NCBI GenBank assembly: GCA_040384765.1
Contig: JAZKIQ010000005.1
Coordinates: 358 to 64,357 of the forward strand
DNA from: Patescibacteria group bacterium
Lineage (GTDB): Bacteria; Patescibacteriota; Minisyncoccia; Phycocordibacterales; JBBUBG01
Length of the DNA: 64,000 nt
Direction of reading: 5' to 3'
Positions 2,631 to 53,392 of this stretch are shown one piece after another. The notes under the pieces are model-generated. The model did no database searches. It was not told the DNA's origin and saw only the letters and a list, made by a program, of their open reading frames with translations. A program made the position numbers and the translations under genes. Numbering within the stretch: the stretch's first letter is position 1; every line of letters begins with the position of its first letter.

Positions 2631-4352
2631 TTACCGGTCCGGTGGCACAGCGTAATACTGGATCAGAAACTTTGTAATATTCTCAAACGGTTCGGTGAGT
2701 GTTTCCGATGAATATTGTACACCCTTCGGGTAGACGATGTAGAGAAAGGTGAGGAAGCGAGCATTTTGGCTCGGAAAATAGCCAAAAAAGGAGTGCAGGT
2801 AGCGATCAGAGTAGTATCCACCCTCTTTTGGGTTCGCCATCTGTGCGGTACCCGTCTTTGCAGCTACGCTATAATGCTCCATCTTTACCTTTCCCTTTGC
2901 AAGATGAAGGTCGACCACTTCGGTAAGCATCTTTGAGATCGTGCGAGTTGTTTCCTCCTTGAGCACTCGACCTTGTATCTCTGGAGCGGTCACGCGCTCA
3001 ACACCTGCTTTGTACACAACCTTCTCAACAACATAGGGGCGCATCAGAAGCCCGCCGTTTGCGAGTGCTGCAAGCGCACGGACAATCTCGATCGGCGTTA
3101 CAGCGATCCCCTGTCCAAATGAGGCAGTGGCAAGCTCTACTTCACGAGTAGAATCAAGGTTTCTGATAAGTCCTGCAAGCTCGTTGGGAAGGTCTATCCC
3201 CGTCTTCTCTCCCAAGCCGTATCCCCTAAAATAGGTTCGAAATGCGCTTCTGCCAAGTGACTGCTCGATAAATACCGAACCAACATTGAGAGACTGGCTC
3301 AAAATCTCTTGTATAGGAATCACGCCGCGGGCCTTGCCATCAAAATTTGATATCTTTTTCCCATCGAGCTCAATAGAACCGGTGTCATTGTAGGTAGTAG
3401 AAAGCTTCACTACACCCGCATCAAGCGCAGCAGCCATGGTAAGGGGCTTTACGATCGATCCCATCTCATACACATTCTCGATAAGAGGATTTGAAAAGAC
3501 TGCTACGTCCGTCACCTTTCCAAACTCATTTGGATCAAAGGTAGGCAGTGCGGCCATACCCACGATCTTGCCAGTCTTTGGCTCGATAATCACACCACCG
3601 GCTGCATCGGCACCCCATTTCTCTCTCGCAAGTGCGAGCTGTCGCTCGAGGTAAGCCTGCACTGTCGGCTCGATCGTAAGTACGACGTCACCCTCGGGCT
3701 CAAGGTCGCCATCAACAACCGTATCCTTGAGGTTTCCAAAAAGCTCAGCAAAAAAGTTGAGCGAGAGACTGCTTGTTGAGCGAGAGAGCAGAGTTTGAAA
3801 TAACTTTTCGATACCATACCGGCCGATCGGGTATGGACCAGAATCCTTAGAAAGGCCGACAAATCCAAGCACGTGCGCGGCAAGAGCGCCCGCAGGATAC
3901 GTCCGCACATTTTCTTTAAACACCCCTACGCCGGGTACCCCAAGCACACGAACGCGCTCGGCTGTTTCCTGGGAAAGACCCTTTGCAACGAGCTCATAGA
4001 GATCGTTTTTACGAGTGGCCTTCTCAAGGAAAATATCTTTGTTGAGATCGAGGATTGTACTGAGCTGCTCGTAGAGAGCTGGAGGGTCAACGATGACAGA
4101 AGGGTTGATCGTTATCGAATAGCGAGCGCTAAGTGTAGCTGCAGAGATAAGTGCCCCATCTTTTTCCGCAAAAAGGATAGTGCCCCGATCGTACGCACCA
4201 CCAGAAGGCTGCGCATACTGCCTATCTGCAAGGGCGCGATATGCGTCACCGTGTAAAACCTGTAGGTAGAAAAGCCTCACAAACGCGACAGTAGCAAACA
4301 GAAAAAAAAGCGCGTAGATGATCTGGATACGAGTTCGGAACGAGGAACGCAT
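2631..4352 (-). CDS. ftsI: penicillin-binding protein FtsI (PBP3 transpeptidase); ORF track extends to 4487 but that N-terminus covers a repeat element
   Basis: N-terminal TM, SIVKP (SxxK), SNF, KTGTA motifs; dcw context; start chosen at MRSSFRTRIQIIY TM helix. Confidence 0.8.
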   Translation of the reverse strand: MRSSFRTRIQIIYALFFLFATVAFVRLFYLQVLHGDAYRALADRQYAQPSGGAYDRGTILFAEKDGALISAATLSARYSITINPSVIVDPPALYEQLSTILDLNKDIFLEKATRKNDLYELVAKGLSQETAERVRVLGVPGVGVFKENVRTYPAGALAAHVLGFVGLSKDSGPYPIGRYGIEKLFQTLLSRSTSSLSLNFFAELFGNLKDTVVDGDLEPEGDVVLTIEPTVQAYLERQLALAREKWGADAAGGVIIEPKTGKIVGMAALPTFDPNEFGKVTDVAVFSNPLIENVYEMGSIVKPLTMAAALDAGVVKLSTTYNDTGSIELDGKKISNFDGKARGVIPIQEILSQSLNVGSVFIEQSLGRSAFRTYFRGYGLGEKTGIDLPNELAGLIRNLDSTREVELATASFGQGIAVTPIEIVRALAALANGGLLMRPYVVEKVVYKAGVERVTAPEIQGRVLKEETTRTISKMLTEVVDLHLAKGKVKMEHYSVAAKTGTAQMANPKEGGYYSDRYLHSFFGYFPSQNARFLTFLYIVYPKGVQYSSETLTEPFENITKFLIQYYAVPPDR

Positions 4353-4381: not shown

Positions 4382-4471
4382 CAGATGTTTCCTCTGAAAA
4401 GCACGATACTTTTCTACTGAAAAGTTCTCTACTCAGCGCCTTCGCGCTTCCGTAAGGCTTTTCAGAGGAAA
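4382..4471. repeat. family-C repeat copy 1 (cctctgaaaagc/gcttttcagagg 12-bp IR) in ftsL-ftsI gap
   Basis: ~80% identical over ~85 bp to copy at 15191-15282. Confidence 0.55.
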
Positions 4472-6696: not shown

Positions 6697-6724
6697 TTGA
6701 CTTTTACGGTAAAAATGCTATAAT
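6697..6724 (+). promoter_or_regulatory. near-consensus sigma70 promoter with extended -10 (TTGACT-N16-TGcTATAAT) (P1)
   Basis: ttgacttttacggtaaaaatgctataat directly upstream of SD ggaaggagg and ATG 6749. Confidence 0.6.
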
Positions 6725-6748
6725 TTTAGATGGAAGGAGGCCTGAAAA

Positions 6749-7198
6749 ATGGTCTTAAAAATGCCTCGAAAGAAAAGGGTGCTTTTGCTCGCAGACCCGG
6801 GACCGATGATCTGCTTGATCGACAGCCTGCTCACCATGGCACTTGGAATGGAAGTGCGGTACGTTACACTCGCAGACTGCCTCGAGGTGGAAGATGCGGA
6901 CACGGACTGCCTCGCTACGTCTCTTGAAAATCAGGGGCTGGAGATGTCGTGGATGCACCCTGATTGTCTGGTTGGACTCTACGATCTCGCGTTCATGGGG
7001 CGGAAGGAGCAGGCGTACGGTCGCGCATACAATCTGACTCGACAGCTCTTCCGAAACGTTCCGTTCCTCGTCTGCTTACCTGACTTCGAAGTAAGCATTC
7101 TGCCGCCGGACGTTCCCGACTCGCTCAACGTGGAGGATGTTACCTTGGTGGAAGCGAGACATCTCGTCGAGAAAATCAAGGAAGTAGTCCCCAAGTGA
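6749..7198 (+). CDS. hypothetical protein, GC-rich ORFan cassette (weak receiver-domain-like N-terminus?)
   Basis: 149 aa; strong SD ggaaggagg-8nt-ATG, own promoter and terminator; noticeably higher GC than flanking dcw/lysS genes; opposite strand to neighbours. Confidence 0.6.
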   Translation: MVLKMPRKKRVLLLADPGPMICLIDSLLTMALGMEVRYVTLADCLEVEDADTDCLATSLENQGLEMSWMHPDCLVGLYDLAFMGRKEQAYGRAYNLTRQLFRNVPFLVCLPDFEVSILPPDVPDSLNVEDVTLVEARHLVEKIKEVVPK

Positions 7199-7201
7199 AC
7201 A

Positions 7202-7242
7202 GGCCCCGAGGCGCGAAAGCGCTTCGGGGCTTCATATTTTTA
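7202..7242 (+). terminator. rho-independent terminator of the 6749-7198 cassette
   Basis: ggccccgaggcgc-gaaa-gcgcttcggggc followed by ttcatattttt. Confidence 0.6.
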
Positions 7243-15335: not shown

Positions 15336-16442
15336 TCAGCCTCTCACCAGCTTCATGACATCTCCATAGGTGAGAATAGCCATCAGAAGAATAAGGGCGA
15401 AAAAACCCGCTGCGTTCCAAGTTGCTGAGGTGCGAGGACGGATCTCCTTTCTCCGGACTGCTTCGATAAGGATAAAAAGGAGGCGGCCGCCGTCGAGCGC
15501 AGGGAAAGGCACAAGGTTCATCACCGCAAGATTTACTGAGATCATTGCTGTCAGAGTAAGTAGGTAGACAAATCCGAGAGCGGATGCGTCACCCACCACA
15601 CCAATAAGTCCTACGGGGCCCGTTACGCCATCAAGATTTGCTTGGCCCACAAACACCGAACGTATGAGGCCAAAAAGGGCACCTGCCGTGGCCTGCAGAA
15701 GATGCGCCGTCGTGCGAGCACCTTCCACTATCGAAGAAAAGAAGCCGAGCTGAAGCGTGCCAACCGTATCCATGGCAATACCAACAGCGAGCTTATCTGG
15801 CACGATACCCACCACAGGGATAAGGTGAGCATCTCGTGGAAGTGACTCGCCGCGGCGATAGGTAAGGGTAAGCTCGCGCCCGCCTGTGGCAGCGATAAAC
15901 TGCTGAATAGCTTCTGGTGTACTCCCTTCCAGCTTGCGATCAGGGGCGCCCGAAAGAGCAACGATCTCATCCCCTGCTTGGAGGCCCGCTTTTTCTGCAG
16001 GTGAATCTGGACCCACAAAAGTAACGACCGTCTTTGCATCAAGAAGCGTACTCCCGGCTGGAGCTTGGGAGAGCGACATAGGCAGGCCCAGCATATAGCC
16101 AGAAGAGATGAGACCCCAAGCAAGGATCAGGTTGAAACAGACACCTGCAACCACAACAGCCGCCTGCTTCCATCTTGATTTTGCCGTGAAGCTATCTGCC
16201 GGGCGAGTATCCACTGCTCCCTCTTCGAGAGCATCTTCTCCGTATATACGCACAAACCCACCAAACGGTATTGCATTAAAGGAGTAGAGAGTCCCCTTCC
16301 ATGTGTATCCAAAAAGTCGTGGTGGAAATCCAAAACCAAACTCATCGACACGCATCCCAAAGAGCTTCGCCACGATAAAATGGCCAAACTCATGGGAAAC
16401 CACGAGGACACCGAGGATAATTACGAAAAGTATAATTGACAT
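15336..16442 (-). CDS. rseP: RIP site-2 zinc metalloprotease RseP
   Basis: HEFGHF zinc motif, PDZ domain, multiple TM. Confidence 0.8.
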   Translation of the reverse strand: MSIILFVIILGVLVVSHEFGHFIVAKLFGMRVDEFGFGFPPRLFGYTWKGTLYSFNAIPFGGFVRIYGEDALEEGAVDTRPADSFTAKSRWKQAAVVVAGVCFNLILAWGLISSGYMLGLPMSLSQAPAGSTLLDAKTVVTFVGPDSPAEKAGLQAGDEIVALSGAPDRKLEGSTPEAIQQFIAATGGRELTLTYRRGESLPRDAHLIPVVGIVPDKLAVGIAMDTVGTLQLGFFSSIVEGARTTAHLLQATAGALFGLIRSVFVGQANLDGVTGPVGLIGVVGDASALGFVYLLTLTAMISVNLAVMNLVPFPALDGGRLLFILIEAVRRKEIRPRTSATWNAAGFFALILLMAILTYGDVMKLVRG

Positions 16443-16449
16443 GTACTTG

Positions 16450-16510
16450 CAAGAGTTCAGACATCAGAGTTTAGAGTTCAGTCTGACTGAGCTCTGATCT
16501 CTGAACTCTG
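16450..16510. repeat. family-B palindromic 9-mer cluster copy 1 (rseP start / frr stop gap)
   Basis: caagagttcagacatcagagtttagagttcagtctgactgagctctgatctctgaactctg. Confidence 0.6.
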
Positions 16511-16525
16511 TAATCTGTACTCTTC

Positions 16526-17077
16526 TTATTCTGCTATATCTCCCTCCTTCTTCCCTGCCATGCTCTCAAGCTTCGCATTCGCTTCGTCTACATGCTTCTG
16601 AAGCGCTTCAATATCGCGAAACTTATCGTCCTCTCCTATCTCCTTCGCTTTCTCTTTGGCCGTAATGTCGTTTTTGATCACATCGCGCTCTTTGCGCACC
16701 CGCACGCGGGCCTCTTCGAGCTTTTCCTTGAGCACTTTGCCGAGCATCGTACGGCGCTCCCCAGAGAGCTCTGGAAACACCACGCGGATATTAGAGCCGT
16801 CAGACGATGTTGATACGCCAAGGTTTGCAGCCGAGATCGAAGACTCGATCTCCTTCAACATTACTTTGTCCCACGGAGAGATGACGAGCGAGCGAGAGTC
16901 ACCAAGCGCAATCGCCGCCACGTGCGAAATCTGCATTCGCGACCCGTACTGCTCTACATATACCGAATCGAGAATCGCCGGAGTGGCACGGCCCGTGCGA
17001 ATAGCCGCGAGCTCACGCGCAAACCACTCCTCGATCTCTTTTTGTTTTGCTTTAAACTGAGAAAAATTGTATGCCAT
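16526..17077 (-). CDS. frr: ribosome recycling factor
   Basis: 183 aa; full-length match to Frr. Confidence 0.85.
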   Translation of the reverse strand: MAYNFSQFKAKQKEIEEWFARELAAIRTGRATPAILDSVYVEQYGSRMQISHVAAIALGDSRSLVISPWDKVMLKEIESSISAANLGVSTSSDGSNIRVVFPELSGERRTMLGKVLKEKLEEARVRVRKERDVIKNDITAKEKAKEIGEDDKFRDIEALQKHVDEANAKLESMAGKKEGDIAE

Positions 17078-17093
17078 AGAAAATCATAGTTAC

Positions 17094-17153
17094 CAGAGAT
17101 CAGAGTTTAGAGTTCAGCCAGACTGAGCTCTGATAACTAAACTCTGAACTCTT
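17094..17153. repeat. family-B cluster copy 2 (frr-holB gap)
   Basis: cagagatcagagtttagagttcagccagactgagctctgataactaaactctgaactcttg. Confidence 0.6.
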
Positions 17154-17195
17154 GCTTGGGTCATATACTATCACGACGAACGAGGACCGGCCACC

Positions 17196-21709: not shown

Positions 21710-21717
21710 AAAGAAAC

Positions 21718-21754
21718 CCCGACAACCGTCACCGGTTGTCGGGGCGCTCTCAGG
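21718..21754 (-). terminator. rho-independent terminator (minus strand)
   Basis: ccccgacaaccg-tcac-cggttgtcgggg followed on minus strand by tttcttttt. Confidence 0.65.
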
Positions 21755-21787
21755 TGAGAGCTTGCTACTTGGAACTGCTTGGTCGCG

Positions 21788-22171
21788 CTAGGCAGCCCGA
21801 AGCGCGCGGAGGCGGACGTACATATCGTACTCCTGCTTCTTCACGCCCCGCCGAGGCACGACCAAGAGGTCCCACTCGCGAGAGAACTGCTGTTCTCCCA
21901 CTTTGAGCTCCGCGGCCGCGAAGGAGAGGGCCATCCCCTTCAACACCTCTTCAGGGAGAGGCTCACCATCTTCGACTTCGAGGTAGTTCGCGCTGATCCT
22001 CTCGAAGAAGGAGGCAATTTCCGGAGTGAGCTCCGGAACGATGCTCACGCTTTCCATCATCTCGTCGTGCAGGCATGGCCTCTTGTCTGCCCTGCTCGCC
22101 CGACGAGCGAGCAAGATGACGAGCATTACGAACGCACAGACGACCTGGGGCCACGAATCGATAAAGAACAA
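21788..22171 (-). CDS. hypothetical small membrane-anchored protein (GC-rich cassette); boundaries uncertain
   Basis: GC-rich region with overlapping ORFs on both strands; minus-strand terminator downstream; consensus-type promoter TTGACT-N16-TACAGT at 22219-22246 and SD gaggagg suggest TTG start ~22171 rather than ORF-track 22279. Confidence 0.35.
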   Translation of the reverse strand: MFFIDSWPQVVCAFVMLVILLARRASRADKRPCLHDEMMESVSIVPELTPEIASFFERISANYLEVEDGEPLPEEVLKGMALSFAAAELKVGEQQFSREWDLLVVPRRGVKKQEYDMYVRLRALRAA

Positions 22172-22218
22172 GGTGCCTCCTCTGCATTTTGCGCATTTCC
22201 GTCTGGAAAGCTTCCGAA

Positions 22219-22246
22219 TATACTGTAACATCTTTTGAAATAAAGT
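22219..22246 (-). promoter_or_regulatory. promoter P5 (TTGACT-N16-TACAGT) of same family as P1-P4
   Basis: minus strand ttgactttatttcaaaagatgttacagt. Confidence 0.4.
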
Positions 22247-22287
22247 CAACATATCCTGCGCGTGGATTGTGAGGCACAATTGAACAA

Positions 22288-23625
22288 ATGGCTGAGATAC
22301 GTGAAATCGTACAGGAAGGGACGCCTGTTCTTCGTGAAGTTACGAAAGAGGTTCCCCTTGAATCAATACGATCTCCAAAAATTCAAAAACTGATCGCCGA
22401 GATGAAGGCGACCGCTTCCAGGTGCGTAGATGGCGTAGCCCTCGCTGCACCACAGATCGGAGAGCCACTCCGCATTTTTGTTGTATCACCTCGTGCCTAT
22501 GCAGAAGGCGAGGATCTTTCGGAAGAGAATCTCGTCTATATCAACCCCAAAATAGTAAAGCTCTCCAAGAAAAGAGAAGAGCTCGACGAAGGATGCCTCT
22601 CTGTGCGCAATGTGTATGGCAAGATCGAGCGCTCAGAACGTGCCACGATCGTCGCATATAATGAGCACGGCGTGTCATTCGAGCGAGGTGCAGGCGGACT
22701 CCTCGCAGAGATATTTCAACACGAGATGGATCATCTCGAAGGAAAGCTTTTTATCGACTTTGCACGCGATCTGCGCATGGTGCCTCCTAAAGAGGTGCCT
22801 CGATTCGTTTTTTTTGGCACACCAGAGTTTGCGGTGCAGGTAGCAGAGGAGCTTGAGAAAAAGGAGCTGCTCCCCATACTAGTGGTTGCTGCACCTGACA
22901 AGCCGGTCGGCAGGAAGGGCGTTATCACTCCCCCACCCATGAAGGTGTGGGCAGAGAAGCGGCACATACCGTGCATCCAACCAGCAACGCTCAAAGGGAA
23001 AGAGGCGCTCGATACTCTTGTCGGGGAACAGCCCATACTGTTTGTCGTTGCCGCCTACGGCAAGATCATCCCTCAATCTATTCTTGATATCCCTTCACGC
23101 GGCACCCTAAACGTGCACCCTTCGCTTCTTCCCCGCCATCGCGGAGCAGCACCTATTCAGACAGCGATTCTTGAGGGAGACAAAGAGACAGGGGTGTGCG
23201 TAATGGTGCTTGATGCAGAGATGGATCATGGGCCAATCCTAGGATGCGAGCGACTAACGCTCGGAGAGTGGAAGCCCTCATACCCAGAGCTCGAAGAGAA
23301 GCTTGCACTTATGGGAGGTAAGCTTCTCGCGCGCCTTATCCCAAAATGGGTCAAGGCAACTATTGAGCCGAAGGAGCAAGATCATGTGAAGGCAACATTT
23401 ACAAAAAAACTTGAGACCGAAGATGCATTTGTTGAGCCAGGCGAAATAGAGAGCGAGCTTGCCGATCGCAAGATTCGCGCACTGCATCCGAGCCCAGGCG
23501 CATATACGATATTAAAAACAAAGACAGGCAAAGAGGTGCGACTCAAACTGCTACCTGGAGGCAAAGTGATTCCGGAGGGGAAAAAAGAGATGCTGTTTAG
23601 AGAGTGGAAGAGGGGCAATCTCTGA
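22288..23625 (+). CDS. def-fmt: fused peptide deformylase / methionyl-tRNA formyltransferase (Def-Fmt fusion)
   Basis: N-terminus has Def motifs GVALAAPQIG, EGCLSV, QHEMDHLEG; C-terminus has Fmt motifs FFGTPEFAV, HPSLLPRHRGAAPIQ; single uninterrupted 445-aa ORF. Confidence 0.8.
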   Translation: MAEIREIVQEGTPVLREVTKEVPLESIRSPKIQKLIAEMKATASRCVDGVALAAPQIGEPLRIFVVSPRAYAEGEDLSEENLVYINPKIVKLSKKREELDEGCLSVRNVYGKIERSERATIVAYNEHGVSFERGAGGLLAEIFQHEMDHLEGKLFIDFARDLRMVPPKEVPRFVFFGTPEFAVQVAEELEKKELLPILVVAAPDKPVGRKGVITPPPMKVWAEKRHIPCIQPATLKGKEALDTLVGEQPILFVVAAYGKIIPQSILDIPSRGTLNVHPSLLPRHRGAAPIQTAILEGDKETGVCVMVLDAEMDHGPILGCERLTLGEWKPSYPELEEKLALMGGKLLARLIPKWVKATIEPKEQDHVKATFTKKLETEDAFVEPGEIESELADRKIRALHPSPGAYTILKTKTGKEVRLKLLPGGKVIPEGKKEMLFREWKRGNL

Positions 23626-23740
23626 CCAACGTCAGAGATTGCCGGTTGGTAATCCAACCGAGACCGAAGCTGCACCCGAACGATAGTGAGGAATAAGTGC
23701 AGGTGAGAAAATCTGACACAAGAGATCAGAGCTCAGTTAG

Positions 23741-23785
23741 AAAAAAATTCAAGCCCCGGTTCGCTTGCGCGAACCGGGGCTTTCC
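23741..23785 (-). terminator. GC hairpin terminator (gccccggttcgc-ttgc-gcgaaccggggc), copy 1 of a duplicated hairpin
   Basis: on minus strand followed by ttgaattttttt; near-identical copy at 24102-24131. Confidence 0.6.
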
Positions 23786-23791
23786 GCGGGT

Positions 23792-24082
23792 CTAGGCCCG
23801 ATCGGCGTCCTCCATCTCCTGCTCATGGCTACGGAGACGCTCCGCCTTCTCCTCTTCGGCGGCCTGCTTCTGCGCGAGGATAGCGCCCACGACATCAGAC
23901 ATGTCCGAGGAGCGCAGCCTGCTGCAACAGTCTCGGTAGGCCGCCATGATCTCGTCGTGATTCTCAGGAATCTTGGTAGCGCGCAGGAGTCGCTCGAGCA
24001 TCTCGAGCTGACCCTTCGTCTGCACCATCTTGATGATCGCCACCACCGAGAGATGGAATGGCTTGAGATCTTTGGGATCCAC
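23792..24082 (-). CDS. hypothetical protein (GC-rich, GTG start with SD aaggag)
   Basis: 96 aa, acidic C-terminus; flanked by two near-identical GC hairpins. Confidence 0.5.
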   Translation of the reverse strand: MDPKDLKPFHLSVVAIIKMVQTKGQLEMLERLLRATKIPENHDEIMAAYRDCCSRLRSSDMSDVVGAILAQKQAAEEEKAERLRSHEQEMEDADRA

Positions 24083-24101
24083 GATTTTTCTCCTTGGTTT
24101 T

Positions 24102-24131
24102 CGCCCAGGTTCGCTTGCGCGAACCTGGGCG
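24102..24131. repeat. second copy of the ttcgcttgcgcgaac GC hairpin (cgcccaggttcgc-ttgc-gcgaacctgggcg)
   Basis: shares 15-nt core with hairpin at 23753-23780. Confidence 0.55.
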
Positions 24132-24146
24132 GTTGCGAACTAGTGC

Positions 24147-24530
24147 TTAGCTCAAGTGGACTTCGTAGCGATGGTGCTCGAGGCGCACGACGGAAGCGAG
24201 CAACGACTCGCAGTGAGTAGTCGCCCGTTCGACCCAGGTGAGGGTCAGGACCTCGACGCGAGACTGGCCGTCAACGAGCCTGTCTACGAGAGTTGCGAGG
24301 TCGAGAGGATGAATGCTCGAGAGCTTAAGTATCAGATCCTTAGAGCGGGTCAATATCAGGACCGTCAACGCGGCAGACCTTTCGGTGATGTCACCATTCG
24401 GCCCCCTTTCGATGTGCCTGATCTCCTTCCAGTACACCTTCGGATCAGACTCCTTGTCGTTCACGGCAAACTCTCCTGCCACCTTCAGATTCTCCAGTTT
24501 CTTCACAGGACATTCCCCTTTCGTTGCCAA
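24147..24530 (-). CDS. hypothetical protein (GC-rich; TTG start at 24530 or GTG at ~24506)
   Basis: 127 aa; upstream consensus promoter P3; forms two-gene islet with 23792-24082. Confidence 0.45.
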   Translation of the reverse strand: MATKGECPVKKLENLKVAGEFAVNDKESDPKVYWKEIRHIERGPNGDITERSAALTVLILTRSKDLILKLSSIHPLDLATLVDRLVDGQSRVEVLTLTWVERATTHCESLLASVVRLEHHRYEVHLS

Positions 24531-24567
24531 GGACTCGCAGACCTACCGGTATCTGCATCCCTTGGCG

Positions 24568-24596
24568 TGAAAGTTGCCGGTAGCTATCTAATATAA
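24568..24596 (-). promoter_or_regulatory. consensus promoter P3 (TTGACA-N17-TGcTATTAT); -35 overlaps the upstream terminator stem
   Basis: minus strand ttgacattcttcataaatagtgctattat. Confidence 0.55.
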
Positions 24597-24615
24597 TAGC
24601 ACTATTTATGAAGAA

Positions 24616-24650
24616 TGTCAAAAGCCGCCTCTGGGCGGCTTTTGACATTT
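24616..24650. terminator. bidirectional terminator (14-bp perfect stem tgtcaaaagccgcc/ggcggcttttgaca)
   Basis: perfect palindrome downstream of cyclophilin gene. Confidence 0.6.
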
Positions 24651-24668: not shown

Positions 24669-25376
24669 CTACTTCACTACTACGCTCGTGAGCAGAATAT
24701 CCGTAAGCGGTTTGTCTCCTTCTCCATGATTTACCGGAGCTGACTCGATCTTATCAACAATATCCATACCAGAAACGACACTGCCAAAAGCGGTATGCTT
24801 GCCGTCGAGCCATGGGGTTGCCGGGGCAGTGATAACAAAAAACTGCGAACCGTTTGTGTTTGGCCCCGCATTTGCCATTGCGAGCACACCACGCACAAGC
24901 GCCTCATCGCTCGTCTCGTCTGCAAACTGGTAGCCTGGGCCGCCAGTGCCCCAAGAGGCCCGCTTGCTTGAATCCTTTGAAAACGGATCTCCGCCCTGGA
25001 TCATGAACCCCTTGATCACTCGGTGAAAGCGGGTGCCATCGTAAAAATGCTCATGTGCAAGCTTGAGAAAATTTTCAACTGTCTTTGGAGCCTTATCGCG
25101 AAAGAGCTCGAGCTCGATAATGCCAAGCGAAGTGGTAAAGACAACATGAGGGCGAGCATTTGGGGTTTCCATAGGTTTTGGTGGGGTTTTTATAGCTGGA
25201 GAAGTAATAGCAGGAGCGGTATGAACTCCTGAGACAGCCGCGTCTCGAACAAATGAGTCTTGCTCTGTCGCGACTGACCGCGAAAAGAACACGAGGCCAC
25301 CTGCAGTAAAGGCTGAAAATACAATAAAAGTGATCCAGTAGGCGATATCTTTCATTAAAATAGAATACCGCATCAA
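24669..25376 (-). CDS. ppiB: membrane-anchored cyclophilin-type peptidyl-prolyl cis-trans isomerase
   Basis: N-terminal TM; FHRVIKGFMIQGGDP cyclophilin signature. Confidence 0.8.
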   Translation of the reverse strand: MMRYSILMKDIAYWITFIVFSAFTAGGLVFFSRSVATEQDSFVRDAAVSGVHTAPAITSPAIKTPPKPMETPNARPHVVFTTSLGIIELELFRDKAPKTVENFLKLAHEHFYDGTRFHRVIKGFMIQGGDPFSKDSSKRASWGTGGPGYQFADETSDEALVRGVLAMANAGPNTNGSQFFVITAPATPWLDGKHTAFGSVVSGMDIVDKIESAPVNHGEGDKPLTDILLTSVVVK

Positions 25377-25388
25377 GAGATAAGAGGC

Positions 25389-25479
25389 CAGAGTTCAGAG
25401 CTCAGTCAGAACGAAAGCGGCGCCTCGAAGAGGCGCCGCAGCCTGAACTCTGTTTACTGAACTCTAATCTCTAAACTCT
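25389..25479. repeat. family-B cluster copy 3 with embedded GC hairpin gcggcgcctc-gaa-gaggcgccgc (hpf-ppiB gap; last unit overlaps hpf stop codon)
   Basis: cagagttcagagctcagtcaga...gcctgaactctgtttactgaactctaatctctaaactct. Confidence 0.6.
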
Positions 25480-25840
25480 ACTCCCCCGTATGTATCATCT
25501 CCTTGATCGCGCGGCCCCCTTTGCGTTCAAGATCCTTCTTTTTATCGCGAAATGAGGTAACCTGCTCCTCGATCTCATCTTTCACTGCATCAATAGCCGC
25601 ATACATATCCTCTTTTTCTGCTGTCACCGTAAACTTCTTGCCATACGCGCGCAAAATAATCTCCGCCTTGAATATAACTCCGGATACGTGATGTTTCGTG
25701 GTCTTGCCGATATCCACCTGGGCAATTGCAGCATCCTCGGTTGCATCTACGATTTTGCCTACCTGGGTAAGCTTTTTTTCAACATACGAACGCAGCGCTT
25801 CTGTAAGATCAGTACCTACTGCCGTAATATTGATTTTCAT
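25478..25840 (-). CDS. hpf: ribosome hibernation promoting factor (HPF/RaiA family, short form)
   Basis: MKINITAVGTDLTEALRSYVEKKL... sigma-54 modulation protein fold. Confidence 0.8.
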   Translation of the reverse strand: MKINITAVGTDLTEALRSYVEKKLTQVGKIVDATEDAAIAQVDIGKTTKHHVSGVIFKAEIILRAYGKKFTVTAEKEDMYAAIDAVKDEIEEQVTSFRDKKKDLERKGGRAIKEMIHTGE

Positions 25841-30368: not shown

Positions 30369-30414
30369 AACCCGCCTGCACTGCACGGATTTTCCGTGCA
30401 GTGCAGGCGGGTTG
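30369..30414. terminator. bidirectional terminator, 20-bp perfect stem
   Basis: aacccgcctgcactgcacgg-attttc-ccgtgcagtgcaggcgggtt; T-run on minus strand. Confidence 0.65.
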
Positions 30415-30418
30415 TTAG

Positions 30419-31012
30419 CTACCACGCCGCCATAAGCGTGCGCGCGATTGCGCCCATGTCGCTCCGGCCGCCGCAGTTGGAGGTCAGGATCGGATAGGTC
30501 ACGACCTTATCCGCAACGAGTGCCGCGAGTTGGCGTTCCTTTTCGCGGTGGTCGCAGTCGCACGCGAGCACTGCGACTTCGCACTTGGGGAGCTTTTCGC
30601 GGTACTCCCGGACGCAATCGATTGCGCTCTCGAATGCCGAGAGGCCTGCGTACGCGACCACCAGCACATTTTCGCCACCTGTTGCGAGAGGCAGATCCTT
30701 CTGAACCTCAGCACACACTTCGCGCTGATAGCCAGCGGCATCTGCACGCATAGAGTCGATGGTAGCGTCGGCCAGCTTGTGATCACCGACCGAGTGAGCA
30801 TGCGCGAGCAGAATTGCCCCGCCGAGGCTCGGAAACGCACCTCCGGCGTGCACCTTAACCGTGAGCCCTTCCGGCGTCCCCGGCACGATGCCATCTTCGA
30901 AGCCGCCCACCGTGTTGTACGTGACGAAGAGTGCTTCGAGAACCGGCTTGTGGGCAACCGCAATCTGCGGCAACACGACATTCACGAACTCTGCGAGCTT
31001 AATCCAGTTCAT
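30419..31012 (-). CDS. hypothetical protein, GC-rich cassette (~62% GC)
   Basis: 197 aa; SD gggaggg-7nt-ATG; own promoter P4 and terminator; no confident family. Confidence 0.55.
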   Translation of the reverse strand: MNWIKLAEFVNVVLPQIAVAHKPVLEALFVTYNTVGGFEDGIVPGTPEGLTVKVHAGGAFPSLGGAILLAHAHSVGDHKLADATIDSMRADAAGYQREVCAEVQKDLPLATGGENVLVVAYAGLSAFESAIDCVREYREKLPKCEVAVLACDCDHREKERQLAALVADKVVTYPILTSNCGGRSDMGAIARTLMAAW

Positions 31013-43384: not shown

Positions 43385-43468
43385 TCCCGAGAGAATAGCA
43401 CAGCACATTAGACAAAAGAAAAACCGCGAGCACTAGTGCTCGCGGCCAACCAAAAAACTAACTATGAA

Positions 43469-44413
43469 TTACGCTTCACGCACCTTGGGAACTACGACGA
43501 GCCGGCCGAGGGGCATTTCACCTCGATGGTATGCATGGAGTGCGTTCCACTCCTTGCAGCGCTCGTTGAGCCACCCGTGCACTTCATCCGGGCCCGGCAT
43601 CTCGGCGAACGGAATCTCCTTCATGTGAAGAAAGATCGACGCTCCGATCAGGTTAGGGGCCTGTTTGTAGGAGTGGAGGTCGACATTCGGGATGAAAGCC
43701 GACATCACCACCCGCACGTTAAGGCCTGCCTCCTTGGCCTTCCTGAGCTCCTCGAGCACTCCTATGAGCGCGCCTGCCCTGGGTACGCTCGTATAGCGCA
43801 TCCAGTCAGAGATCCCCGGGATCTTCTTCGCGTACTCCACCAGATCCCTTTTGTGGCGACCTGGCTTCCACCGCTGATCTGGGAACAACACAATTCCAGA
43901 GCCGGGCCGGATCTTTCCCTTGATCCACCGCTCGATCCAGCTGCGGGTTTTTTCAGTGCTTGCGCGACTCACGGGTACCGCGGCACCAAGTGCGAGCAGT
44001 GTCCATGAGAGGAATGGATTGAGCACGAGGAGCGCGCTCTTAATCACTACGACCATGTCTCGGGTGAGATAGGTCGTCATGAAATATCCGTACGTCGGGA
44101 TGAGCATCTCCGGCGGATGCGGACCCAGGAGAAGCAGCACATCGCGCTCCCCTGCTGGCGCCACCACATCACCACACAGGTACAGCTTGGCCCCACATAT
44201 CCCCTCGACTGAGGTTTTATGTGAAAGGCGGCAGAATGAGCTGATCACCGACCGAAGCGGACTCGACCCACTGCCAGCGTTCCCGGTAACCGGCGAACGG
44301 AACAAGCACCACGCGATGAACAGAGCTCCTCCAAGAGTGCCGTAGAGACCGTGCACCGCAAGAAGGAAGAAAACCACTCCGAGCGCGAAGTATCCTCGGA
44401 CGTACCGAAGCAT
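43469..44413 (-). CDS. membrane acyltransferase (LPLAT/PlsC-like)
   Basis: N-terminal TM; IVLFPDQRWKPG resembles the acyltransferase FPEGTR motif; GC-rich, strong SD ggaggtg. Confidence 0.4.
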   Translation of the reverse strand: MLRYVRGYFALGVVFFLLAVHGLYGTLGGALFIAWCLFRSPVTGNAGSGSSPLRSVISSFCRLSHKTSVEGICGAKLYLCGDVVAPAGERDVLLLLGPHPPEMLIPTYGYFMTTYLTRDMVVVIKSALLVLNPFLSWTLLALGAAVPVSRASTEKTRSWIERWIKGKIRPGSGIVLFPDQRWKPGRHKRDLVEYAKKIPGISDWMRYTSVPRAGALIGVLEELRKAKEAGLNVRVVMSAFIPNVDLHSYKQAPNLIGASIFLHMKEIPFAEMPGPDEVHGWLNERCKEWNALHAYHRGEMPLGRLVVVPKVREA

Positions 44414-46288: not shown

Positions 46289-46307
46289 GTACCTAGCATA
46301 TCACGAG

Positions 46308-46410
46308 CAAGAGCTCAGTTGTCAGAGTTCAGAGTTCAGCCAAACAAAAGAGCGACGCCCTACGGGCGTCGCTCTTTTACTAAACTCTGAACTCTAATCT
46401 CTGAGCTCTG
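46308..46410. repeat. family-B cluster copy 4 with embedded terminator-like hairpin agagcgacgccc-tac-gggcgtcgctct-tttt
   Basis: caagagctcagttgtcagagttcagagttcagcc...ttttactaaactctgaactctaatctctgagctctg. Confidence 0.6.
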
Positions 46411-52576: not shown

Positions 52577-53077
52577 TTATTTCTTCCCAAGCTCTCGCAT
52601 TGCTTCCGCAATCAAAGCCTCATCAACCAACGACGGGCTAAGCGAAACTGTCTTTTCAAAGAGCGCTCGAACGAAGGTTGCTGCCTCTTCCTCAACATCG
52701 TCCATCACCTCTTTGCGCTCACGCAGCGCAATCAGTTTTGCCTCCTCTACGATACCGTCGGCCTTCGCCTGCATAAGTGTACGTACTTTCTCGCCCTCTG
52801 TGCGAGCCTCTTCCTCAGCTTTCTGGATCATTCGCAAAGCCTCTCCTTCTGCTTCCGCAATTTTGAGAGCTTTTTGCTTTTCCGAATCCGACAGATTACG
52901 CTCTGCGTGCTTTGCATCGAGTAATCCCTTTGAAATCGTCTGCTCACGCTCTGCTACCAAAGCAAGGAGAGGCTTGTAGAGAGCAAAGTAGAGCACCACG
53001 AGCACCACCAAAAAGTTCACCCCATGAGCAAGGAGAGCGGGTCCGTTGATACCTAAGTTGGTGAAGAGTTCTGACAT
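52577..53077 (-). CDS. atpF: ATP synthase Fo b subunit
   Basis: N-terminal TM plus long charged helix. Confidence 0.8.
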   Translation of the reverse strand: MSELFTNLGINGPALLAHGVNFLVVLVVLYFALYKPLLALVAEREQTISKGLLDAKHAERNLSDSEKQKALKIAEAEGEALRMIQKAEEEARTEGEKVRTLMQAKADGIVEEAKLIALRERKEVMDDVEEEAATFVRALFEKTVSLSPSLVDEALIAEAMRELGKK

Positions 53078-53080
53078 GAG

Positions 53081-53163
53081 CAGAGAACAGAGTTCAGTTA
53101 TCAGAGTTCAGAGTTCAGTCAAACTGAGCTCTTGCCTCTAAACTCAAAACTCTGAGTGAACTC
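53081..53163. repeat. family-B palindromic 9-mer cluster (agagttcag/ctgaactct units) filling atpE-atpF gap
   Basis: cagagaacagagttcagttatcagagttcagagttcagtcaaactgagctcttgcctctaaactcaaaactctgagtgaactcc. Confidence 0.6.
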
Positions 53164-53164
53164 C

Positions 53165-53392
53165 TTAGACGAACTTCAATATAAGTGCAACCACCAAAGA
53201 GTAGATAGCAATCGCTTCCGCAAACGCAAGCGAGAGCACCATTGCTGTCTGGATCTTAGAAGCTGCTTCCGGGTTTCGGCCAATAGCCTCTGCGGCTGTT
53301 GTACCAATACGCCCAATCATAAGCGCAGGAGTGATAGTACCTGCTACGATAACCGAACCGATTACAACCATCTTTGCCATTTCTGAATCCAT
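53165..53392 (-). CDS. atpE: ATP synthase Fo c subunit
   Basis: two TM hairpin with conserved carboxylate ([10 protein letters not shown]). Confidence 0.85.

Follow-up and report, generated by a model that had tools for sequence, protein, structure and literature searches.

A two-gene islet on the minus strand of a Patescibacteria metagenome-assembled genome lies between the genes for a cyclophilin-type peptidyl-prolyl isomerase (ppiB) and a Def-Fmt fusion protein, and is on balance probably an accessory cassette of the kind known as morons and promoter early stem-loop (PeSL) elements, in which hairpins would serve both as transcription signals and as anchors for recombination. We analyzed 64 kb of this genome (hereafter the window) and call the two islet genes A (V4674_02580 in NCBI) and B (V4674_02575). 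The evidence comes mainly from the corresponding locus of a related genome, where B is nearly identical, A is only 29% identical and the near-identity begins at the edge of a hairpin between the two genes.

Organization of the islet

Read along the minus strand, the islet runs from ppiB (Pfam PF00160), whose 3' end lies at 24669, through a module hairpin, a promoter, an 80-nt leader, gene A, hairpin H2, a Shine-Dalgarno (SD) sequence and gene B to hairpin H1 with its T tract (Table 1). The module stem-loop folds with -31.4 kcal/mol (z = -8.7) and is present as a single copy in the window. It is a predicted terminator of ppiB, and its 3' arm holds the -35 element TTGACA of the putative islet promoter. 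With TTGACA, a 17-nt spacer, TATTAT and the extending TG, this promoter matches the consensus at 11/12 positions; two promoters of that quality (11/12 plus TG) are found in the 64 kb, compared with 0.045 expected under a first-order Markov model. A and B are separated by a gap of 64 nt that encloses H2, a hairpin of -30 kcal/mol, and H2 is followed by AAAACC, AAGGAG, seven nucleotides and the GTG of B, with the same ribosome-binding site in the related locus. By these predicted signals the islet would form an autonomous transcription unit.

The islet also stands out by its composition. Its G+C content is 58.3% compared with 51.3% for the window, which places it in the 99.5th percentile among 780-nt windows, and the G+C content at third codon positions (GC3) is 0.73 for A and 0.78 for B, or 3.1 and 3.9 standard deviations above the mean of the open reading frames (ORFs) in the window (0.547 ± 0.060). 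A GC-rich islet between fmt and ppiB, with two minus-strand ORFs (24147-24530 and 23792-24082), an AAGGAG-7 nt-GTG start for B and a promoter whose -35 element is embedded in the upstream terminator stem, had been described by the original prediction, which was made from the letters of the window. All of these features were recovered: both ORFs are present, the start of B can be read directly, the -35 element lies in the 3' arm of the 16-bp repeat, and the neighbors are indeed the Def-Fmt fusion and the cyclophilin. Only the start of A is likelier to be GTG 24506. The hairpin at 24614-24649 had further been called a bidirectional terminator, and its sequence is symmetric, but ppiB is the sole gene that runs into it.

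Table 1 Features of the islet, its surroundings and similar terminators in the window.
Feature	Position	Strand	Details
Composite terminator/promoter stem-loop (module), predicted	24614..24649	-	perfect 16-bp stem AAUGUCAAAAGCCGCC / GGCGGCUUUUGACAUU, 4-nt loop
Sigma-70-type promoter (P3), predicted	24586..24621	-	-35 TTGACA 24621-24616, 17-nt spacer
Extended -10 TGcTATTAT	24601-24593	-	followed by TTAGAT 24591-24586
Structured 5' leader of A, putative	24507..24585	-	~80 nt, two helices P1, P2
Gene A (V4674_02580)	24147..24506	-	119 aa, GTG start; longer ORF 24147-24530, 127 aa, TTG
Hairpin H2	24102..24131	-	13-bp stem, GCAA (GNRA) loop on transcript, no U tract
Gene B ribosome-binding site	24080..24095	-	AAGGAG 24095-24090, 7-nt spacer, GTG 24082-24080
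Gene B (V4674_02575)	23792..24082	-	96 aa, GTG start
Hairpin H1 and T tract	23741..23782	-	stem 23751-23782, 14 bp, GCAA loop, tail GAAUUUUUUU
Recently exchanged tract (H2 and B)	23800..24131	-	332 nt, 2 differences from the related locus, 99.4% identical; background divergence 14-17%
Half-copy of palindromic repeat resembling repetitive extragenic palindromes	23719..23747		AGAGATCAGAGCTCAGTTAGAA, one arm only, adjoins H1 T tract
CCCCG/GNRA terminator, predicted	7204-7229	+	after ORF 6749-7198, GC3 0.67
CCCCG/GNRA terminator, predicted	21717-21744	-	after ORF 21788-22279, GC3 0.73
CCCCG/GNRA terminator, predicted	H1	-	after gene B, GC3 0.78

Mosaic divergence between two genomes

The 90% cluster of B contains a second member, P0004, which is encoded on a 2794-bp contig (L009, assembly GCA_040384005.1). 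This contig represents the same slot, with the 3' end of ppiB on one side, the 3' end of fmt on the other and the same high G+C content in between. The two loci have diverged very unevenly. The C-terminal part of Fmt shares 95% amino acid identity at a synonymous divergence (dS) of 0.85, and that of PpiB 88% at a dS of 0.72. A and its counterpart A' share only 28.7% of their amino acids, with two indels, saturated dS and a ratio of nonsynonymous to synonymous divergence (dN/dS) of ~0.25. B, on the other hand, is 97.9% identical in amino acids (94/96 residues) and 98.6% in nucleotides, with a dS of 0.016. The synonymous divergence of A thus equals or exceeds that of the flanks, and that of B is ~50-fold lower. 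Judged from these sequences, the A alleles appear to be at least as old as the split of the two genomes.

The near-identity is confined to a tract comprising H2 and nearly all of B. Its left end, at 24131, is at most 3 nt from the outer boundary of H2, and its right end falls on the first base of B codon 95. Of its two differences, one affects the H2 stem (24120) and the other is a synonymous change at 24059. In a base-by-base alignment, identity outside the tract is roughly 50-70% on both sides.

The related contig furthermore carries an extra gene, X (402-1166, 254 aa), with its own CCCCG-stem terminator and two helix-hairpin-helix regions resembling the C-terminal domain of the RNA polymerase alpha subunit (PF03118; second region, E = 3.7e-8). 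X sits between two copies of the module (294-331 and 1253-1290), whose loops, inner stems and flanks are unlike. Ahead of the second copy lie a degenerate stretch that corresponds to the final ~27 nt of ppiB (17/27 matches) and the spacer CTCTATTT(C/T)CAAC, which the window has as well. The unlike module copies together with the ppiB remnant fit a recombinational insertion that duplicated the end of ppiB and the module, and not a collapsed assembly repeat.

A recombination footprint or, alternatively, cassette boundaries had been proposed for the islet, with a pair of duplicated hairpins flanking both genes. The duplication is real and so are the traces of exchange, namely X between two modules, a tract edge at H2 and an A that has conserved ends but only 29% identity. 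The proposed geometry did not hold up, as the two hairpins enclose B only and H2 lies between A and B. Homologs of both genes do share the context in one relative, and they do so at the same high G+C content rather than at an ordinary one.

Similar units elsewhere in the window

Only three sites in the window have a terminator of the form (A/G)GCCCCG-stem-GNRA-stem-CGGGGC(TT), each after a GC3-rich ORF without Pfam match (Table 1), and in the related contig both X and B are followed by such a terminator. The only other promoter in the window with 11/12 matches plus TG lies at 6697 and would drive ORF 6749, the first of these three. The islet promoter, the promoter at 6697 (signature at 6716) and that of X share the motif TGCTAnnAT, 1-4 nt, TTAGAT, and the hexamer TTAGAT occurs five times in the whole window. 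These common features point to a family of predicted autonomous units with common regulatory ends and unrelated orphan cargo. BLASTP shows no relationship among A, B, X and the remaining GC3-rich orphans of the window.

GC3-rich ORFs (0.67-0.73) without a family in Pfam or PHROGs were seen at 6697-7232 (+), 21717-22279 (-), 30369-31012 (-) and 43422-44413 (-). Each is followed by a predicted hairpin terminator, and the first two units each have a predicted promoter of their own.

Proposed recombination at conserved stem-loops or an immobile operon

In the reading that we favor, incoming ppiB transcription would stop at the module hairpin and the embedded promoter would re-initiate within ~40 nt. 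The transcript would then pass the leader, A, H2 and B, the latter with its own strong SD sequence, and end at H1 and the U tract. H2 with its C(GCAA)G tetraloop would act as an intercistronic stem-loop, either as a barrier to 3' exonucleases or as a processing boundary, and would thereby uncouple the amounts of A and B. In this one pair of genomes, the conserved stem-loops and the promoter module stand out as islands of identity amid cargo that cannot be aligned. The gain or loss of X, the replacement of the A allele and the exchange of H2 and B all have their junctions at or beside these elements, with A replaced between the module or leader and its own 3' end or H2. With the cargo diverged past alignment, homologous recombination between such genomes would find sufficient similarity only in the conserved elements of 28-38 nt, so that exchanges would resolve there. 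An origin of A and B in a foreign gene pool fits both their GC3 excess and the fact that they have no homolog outside the two contigs.

Several observations weigh against this reading. The right end of the exchanged tract lies inside the last codons of B, ~20 nt before H1 and not in H1, and the stretch from the B stop codon to H1 is diverged and contains a 9-nt indel; a clean cassette transfer from hairpin to hairpin is therefore not seen. The H1/H2 core has no further copies in the 64-kb window. High GC3 could stem from something other than foreign origin, and sequence is the basis for the predicted promoter and terminator and for the proposed role of H2. The comparison involves a single related contig, a 2.8-kb scaffold with a 10-N gap and possibly a foreign piece inside X, and since this scaffold is short and gapped, the mosaic could in part stem from chimeric assembly. 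Finally, no search identifies what A and B do.

We consider it unlikely, though less so than any other alternative, that the islet is an ordinary, immobile, lineage-specific operon with a duplicated terminator, in which GC3 would reflect codon or expression bias and the mosaic an artefact of assembly or strain mixing. Orphan genes are common in Patescibacteria, the hairpin has only two copies, the islet occupies the same place in both genomes, and the related contig is short, with a PAS-like antisense fragment beside its N gap. Such an artefact is difficult to reconcile with two module copies that differ from each other, the second of which keeps a decayed ppiB end, as expected if they are not a collapsed repeat. 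The nearly identical tract still contains two differences, and A is saturated with synonymous changes at a locus where the dS of B is ~50-fold lower than that of the flanks. Three separate GC3-rich orphan units moreover share the terminator style, and two of them share the promoter signature with X.

On the related contig, the PAS-like motif (DGIITSWNPAAERMYG...) lies on the opposite strand at ~602-830, beside the gap in X, and suggests a scaffolding chimera or foreign fill-in.

Gene A and its leader

The start codon GTG 24506 of A and the upstream AAAGGGG are kept in the related contig while TTG 24530 is not, and NCBI likewise calls a protein of 119 aa; we therefore regard GTG 24506 as the more likely start. 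A and A' share the motifs MK(K/R), PKxY, TRSKDLxL, HPxD, RVxVxT and LASxV as well as the C-terminal YEVHLS, whose six codons, the last of the gene, contain five synonymous differences. The preservation of these motifs through saturated synonymous change argues that A is a real gene under selection at specific positions. A poor single-sequence AlphaFold2 model of A, with a predicted local distance difference test (pLDDT) score of 44, has strands in its N-terminal and helices in its C-terminal half.

Upstream of A, the leader is predicted to form two helices, P1 (24560-24566 paired with 24526-24532) and P2 (24552-24556 paired with 24537-24541). In the two-sequence alignment of the window and the related contig, nearly all substitutions in the leader fall within P1 and P2, and the unpaired segments are invariant. 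Five pairs, including four in a row in P1, have both bases altered, and all remain paired, compared with 0-1 such pairs in slid controls. From two sequences this is suggestive rather than conclusive, but it would be difficult to account for without selection for RNA structure. The loop CCGGUAG (24543-24549) has its exact complement 28 nt upstream in the invariant CUACCGG (24577-24583), and the start-codon region GUGAA(A/G) has its complement in UUUCAC (24567-24572). The obvious inference is that the leader would exert translational control over A. No Rfam family was found at threshold; the best match, isrJ, reached 27 bits compared with a gathering score of 37 and covered the terminator only.

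Twenty consecutive nucleotides (GCTACCGGCAACTTTCACG) equal to the invariant 5' part of the leader were noticed in two near-identical IMG/VR contigs (L012, 3536-3556; L013, 6257-6277). We rejected this 21-nt match, as it has no wider similarity around it and is expected at chance level.

Gene B and the search for relatives

B is acidic and modeled as all-helical: its weak single-sequence AlphaFold2 model (pLDDT 64) has four helices, the last of which is long and highly charged. The support for B as a gene is weaker than that for A and consists of the strong SD sequence, the codon-position pattern of G+C and an ORF that is intact on both contigs; its dN/dS rests on only four changes and is thus little informative.

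Both proteins are orphans. Neither A nor B matches a family in Pfam, NCBIfam, PADLOC or PHROGs even at E ≤ 10, the best noise in these libraries of hidden Markov models (HMMs) being DUF1655 at E = 0.11 and PHROGs at 0.05-0.2. Against Protein Data Bank (PDB) sequences only matches with E > 0.5 were obtained, and Foldseek with the B model, a check that had been proposed for both proteins, returned nothing below E = 0.8 from PDB and BFVD and hence no fold match. In a word-indexed search of 5.8 billion proteins, A and B each returned only themselves. Nothing above chance level came from tblastn searches of phages and plasmids, from scans of viral contigs or from a blastn comparison of the islet with phages, and a profile built from A and A' found no third member. 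Relatives of A and B were thus found on one contig only. An exhaustive HMMER search with A among 1.84 billion representatives returned A itself and P0003, a protein of 1426 aa with five identical repeats (E = 4e-5). The latter was rejected as spurious because its E-value sums one weak 36-residue match five times.

A toxin-antitoxin module had been suggested on the basis of size and two-gene organization. A type II toxin-antitoxin or toxin-immunity pair, in which one protein poisons the cell or a competitor and the other neutralizes it by direct binding, would agree with two small genes (119 and 96 aa), predicted to be co-transcribed, in a GC-atypical accessory unit, with the acidic and helical character of B and with the invariant polar residues of A (TRSKD, H66, D69, R83 and the YEVH tail), which might make up an active site. 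Conflict systems also commonly have one hypervariable partner. The searches do not bear this out, since no toxin, antitoxin or defense model matches in the HMM libraries at E ≤ 10 and no DNA-binding domain was detected in A or B. The spacing is ambiguous: the genes are co-oriented under one predicted promoter, but instead of overlapping or abutting they stand 64 nt apart with a hairpin of -30 kcal/mol between them. Moreover, the partners do not co-vary, and identities of 29% for A and 98% for B are hard to square with a specific neutralizing interface. We therefore regard a toxin-antitoxin pair as improbable. That A is hypervariable while B has spread recently and is nearly invariant suggests an accessory pair that is not co-evolving as toxin and antitoxin and that may have a conflict-related function.

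The twin hairpins

H1 (23753-23780) and H2 (24103-24130) are the same at 26/28 nt, and the two differences amount to one compensatory pair (C:G to A:T). Both fold with about -30 kcal/mol at z-scores of -5 to -7. H1 (-30.6 kcal/mol) starts 10 nt past the stop codon of B and is directly followed by GAATTTTTTT (a T7 tail in the terminator scan), which makes it a textbook intrinsic terminator of the operon by prediction. H2 (-30.3 kcal/mol, z = -6.7) begins 15 nt past the stop codon of A and lacks a T tract on both strands, so it should not act as a terminator. The 18-nt core of the hairpins is found at exactly two sites in the 64 kb, where 0.06 are expected by chance, and the resulting repeat encloses B alone with a period of 350 nt.

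Recurrence of the core beside other cargo had been named as a check of the cassette idea. The core is absent from the rest of the window, and in public collections it was found at chance level only, with two matches in a metagenome scan (L007 and L008) and two in a viral scan (L010 and L011). These four contigs have 63-73% G+C and carry no relative of A or B. Their hairpins, which include one ordinary terminator and two viral hairpins without a T tract, were rejected as dispersed copies and attributed to convergence or chance on unrelated high-GC contigs. With homologs in a shared context at high G+C content and no recurrence of the core, the refuting condition set by the original prediction came out mixed. 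The module hairpin found no match in viral contigs.

A near-identical palindrome after each gene, a single upstream promoter, a repeat that encloses B exactly and a left tract junction at the edge of H2 are features that integron-type cassettes would share, with the hairpins as attC-like recombinase sites and A and B as independent promoterless cassettes. We consider such cassettes very unlikely. Among the ORFs within ±7 kb there is no integrase, transposase or other recombinase. The stems are short (13-14 bp) and perfect, without extrahelical bases. The core sites of attC read RYYYAAC/GTTRRRY, and the arms GGTTCGC/GCGAACC do not match this consensus. The right tract junction lies outside H1, and neither the window nor, beyond chance, the metagenome and viral collections have the hairpin next to other cargo.

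That the minus strand is non-coding, and that the real products are the plus-strand ORFs (151 and 146 aa) or a non-coding RNA, is hardly credible: long ORFs on both strands, very stable RNA structures and a structured leader would be compatible with it, but the predicted promoter and terminator as well as both ribosome-binding sites lie on the minus strand, the minus frames of A and B have the coding pattern GC3 > GC1 > GC2, the motifs of A and A' persist through synonymous change at a dN/dS of 0.25, the plus-strand translations are Leu/Arg-rich as is typical of shadow ORFs, and no Rfam family reaches threshold.

The H1 stems are the same in the window (23751-23782) and in the related contig (2096-2127), where the loop is TCGC in place of GCAA. 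TCGC is the reverse complement of GCGA, one change away from GCAA, and this flip looks like a small stem-mediated inversion.

Relation to known systems

PeSL cassettes of T4-type phages combine a strong sigma-70-like promoter with a stem-loop terminator that can overlap the -35 element, and they lie directly upstream of ORFans in variable regions; copies mark insertion, deletion and replacement junctions between related phages, and there are ~50 per phage genome (Arbiol et al. 2010, PMC2839356; Comeau et al. 2014, PMC4122927). The module of the islet is likewise a composite of promoter and stem-loop upstream of orphans, with copies at indel junctions in the one pair of genomes compared. It differs in its location on a Patescibacteria chromosome between housekeeping genes instead of a phage hyperplastic region, and in its copy number, which is one in the 64-kb window and two in the related contig compared with ~50 per phage genome. 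Mini-circles and promoter and terminator activity are features of phage PeSLs, whereas the promoter and terminator of the islet are predictions, and the islet has a second repeated hairpin (H1/H2) without a promoter.

Morons are independent promoter-gene-terminator units of phages with atypical G+C content (Cumby et al. 2012, PMC3594210). As in a moron, the islet has its own predicted promoter and factor-independent terminator and a G+C content unlike that of its neighbors, and it lies between genes that are otherwise adjacent or differently filled, being absent from distant relatives. Unlike a moron, it lies outside any phage or prophage, with housekeeping neighbors and no phage similarity, and it comprises two genes and an internal hairpin.

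The position of H2 also invites comparison with a third class of element. Intercistronic palindromes of the REP/BIME type (repetitive extragenic palindromes and bacterial interspersed mosaic elements) stabilize upstream mRNA, as for instance in malE-malF of E. coli. H2 resembles them in that it forms a stable, GC-rich stem-loop between two cistrons, past the first, and lacks a U tract. It differs in that it does not belong to the dispersed palindrome family of its own genome (AGAGTTCAGAG...), its sole other copy being H1.

Taken further, the data would be compatible with a PeSL-like system of mobile regulatory modules in Patescibacteria, made up of strong promoters fused to terminator hairpins and of GNRA-loop terminators of the CCCCG...CGGGG type. 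Orphans from a shared pool of higher G+C content would be inserted, swapped and exchanged between species at housekeeping junctions without a dedicated recombinase. A and B would be a new conflict-related pair, with A as a hypervariable specificity or target protein under the control of a new kind of structured leader RNA and B as a conserved partner that swept across lineages recently. We put this broader scenario forward tentatively, as a possibility rather than an expectation.

Patescibacteria (candidate phyla radiation) genomes are small and contain many genes of unknown function, and the acquisition and turnover of their accessory genes are poorly understood. If the proposed mechanism is true, stem-loop/promoter modules would act as portable homology that shuffles orphan genes in a bacterial chromosome, a mechanism so far documented for T4-type phages. 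The accessory pool, which is probably conflict-related, would then be recognizable by a signature that combines a GC3-rich ORFan with an extended -10 promoter close to consensus and a GNRA terminator with a CCCCG stem. The locus provides objects for testing in the form of a hypervariable protein with invariant motifs, a recently transferred conserved partner and a leader RNA with compensatory changes. Its main value lies in this testable signature and in the mosaic, not in an assigned function; should the pattern fail, the locus would be one more orphan operon with a duplicated terminator.

The slot between fmt and hpf and its surroundings

Within ±7 kb of the islet, the window encodes RRF, a protein resembling the delta' subunit of DNA polymerase III, MreB, a 675-aa protein without Pfam match, Def-Fmt, the cyclophilin, HPF, a major facilitator superfamily (MFS) transporter, a DUF3298/PdaC protein and QueA. 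In distant relatives, whose Def-Fmt is 36-41% identical, def/fmt still faces hpf, and the cargo in between differs. L001 has none, L002 has one ORF of 345 aa and L003 has several ORFs, and nothing in these three intervals resembles A, B or ppiB. The differing cargo indicates that the fmt-hpf interval is a variable slot, and the half-copy at 23719-23747 marks its native edge.

In the window, def and fmt are fused in a single ORF of 445 aa (22288-23625, +; Pfam PF01327 and PF00551). In at least two of the distant relatives, fmt is an ORF of its own that starts after def (L002, 6001-7378; L003, 1873-3404). Just past fmt, L003 carries a different small gene pair on the minus strand (3411-4053), encoding proteins of 120 aa and 90 aa; the former has a DTGFTG motif and is retropepsin-like by eye. 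The slot thus has a further two-gene occupant in this relative.

The half-copy belongs to a genome-specific family of long intergenic palindromes built of AGAGTTCAGAG(C/T)TCAG units and their complements. Members of this family were located at 16430-16540, 17070-17160, 23719-23747 (the half-copy), 25374-25480, 46300-46410 and 53075-53170. A GC-rich terminator hairpin lies inside each of the copies at 25374-25480, after hpf, and at 46300-46410. H1 and fmt are separated in the related contig by a spacer that bears no relation to the one in the window, and a long palindrome within it, at 2209-2283, is 78% similar to positions 4390-4463 of the window, which suggests a second family of dispersed palindromic repeats.

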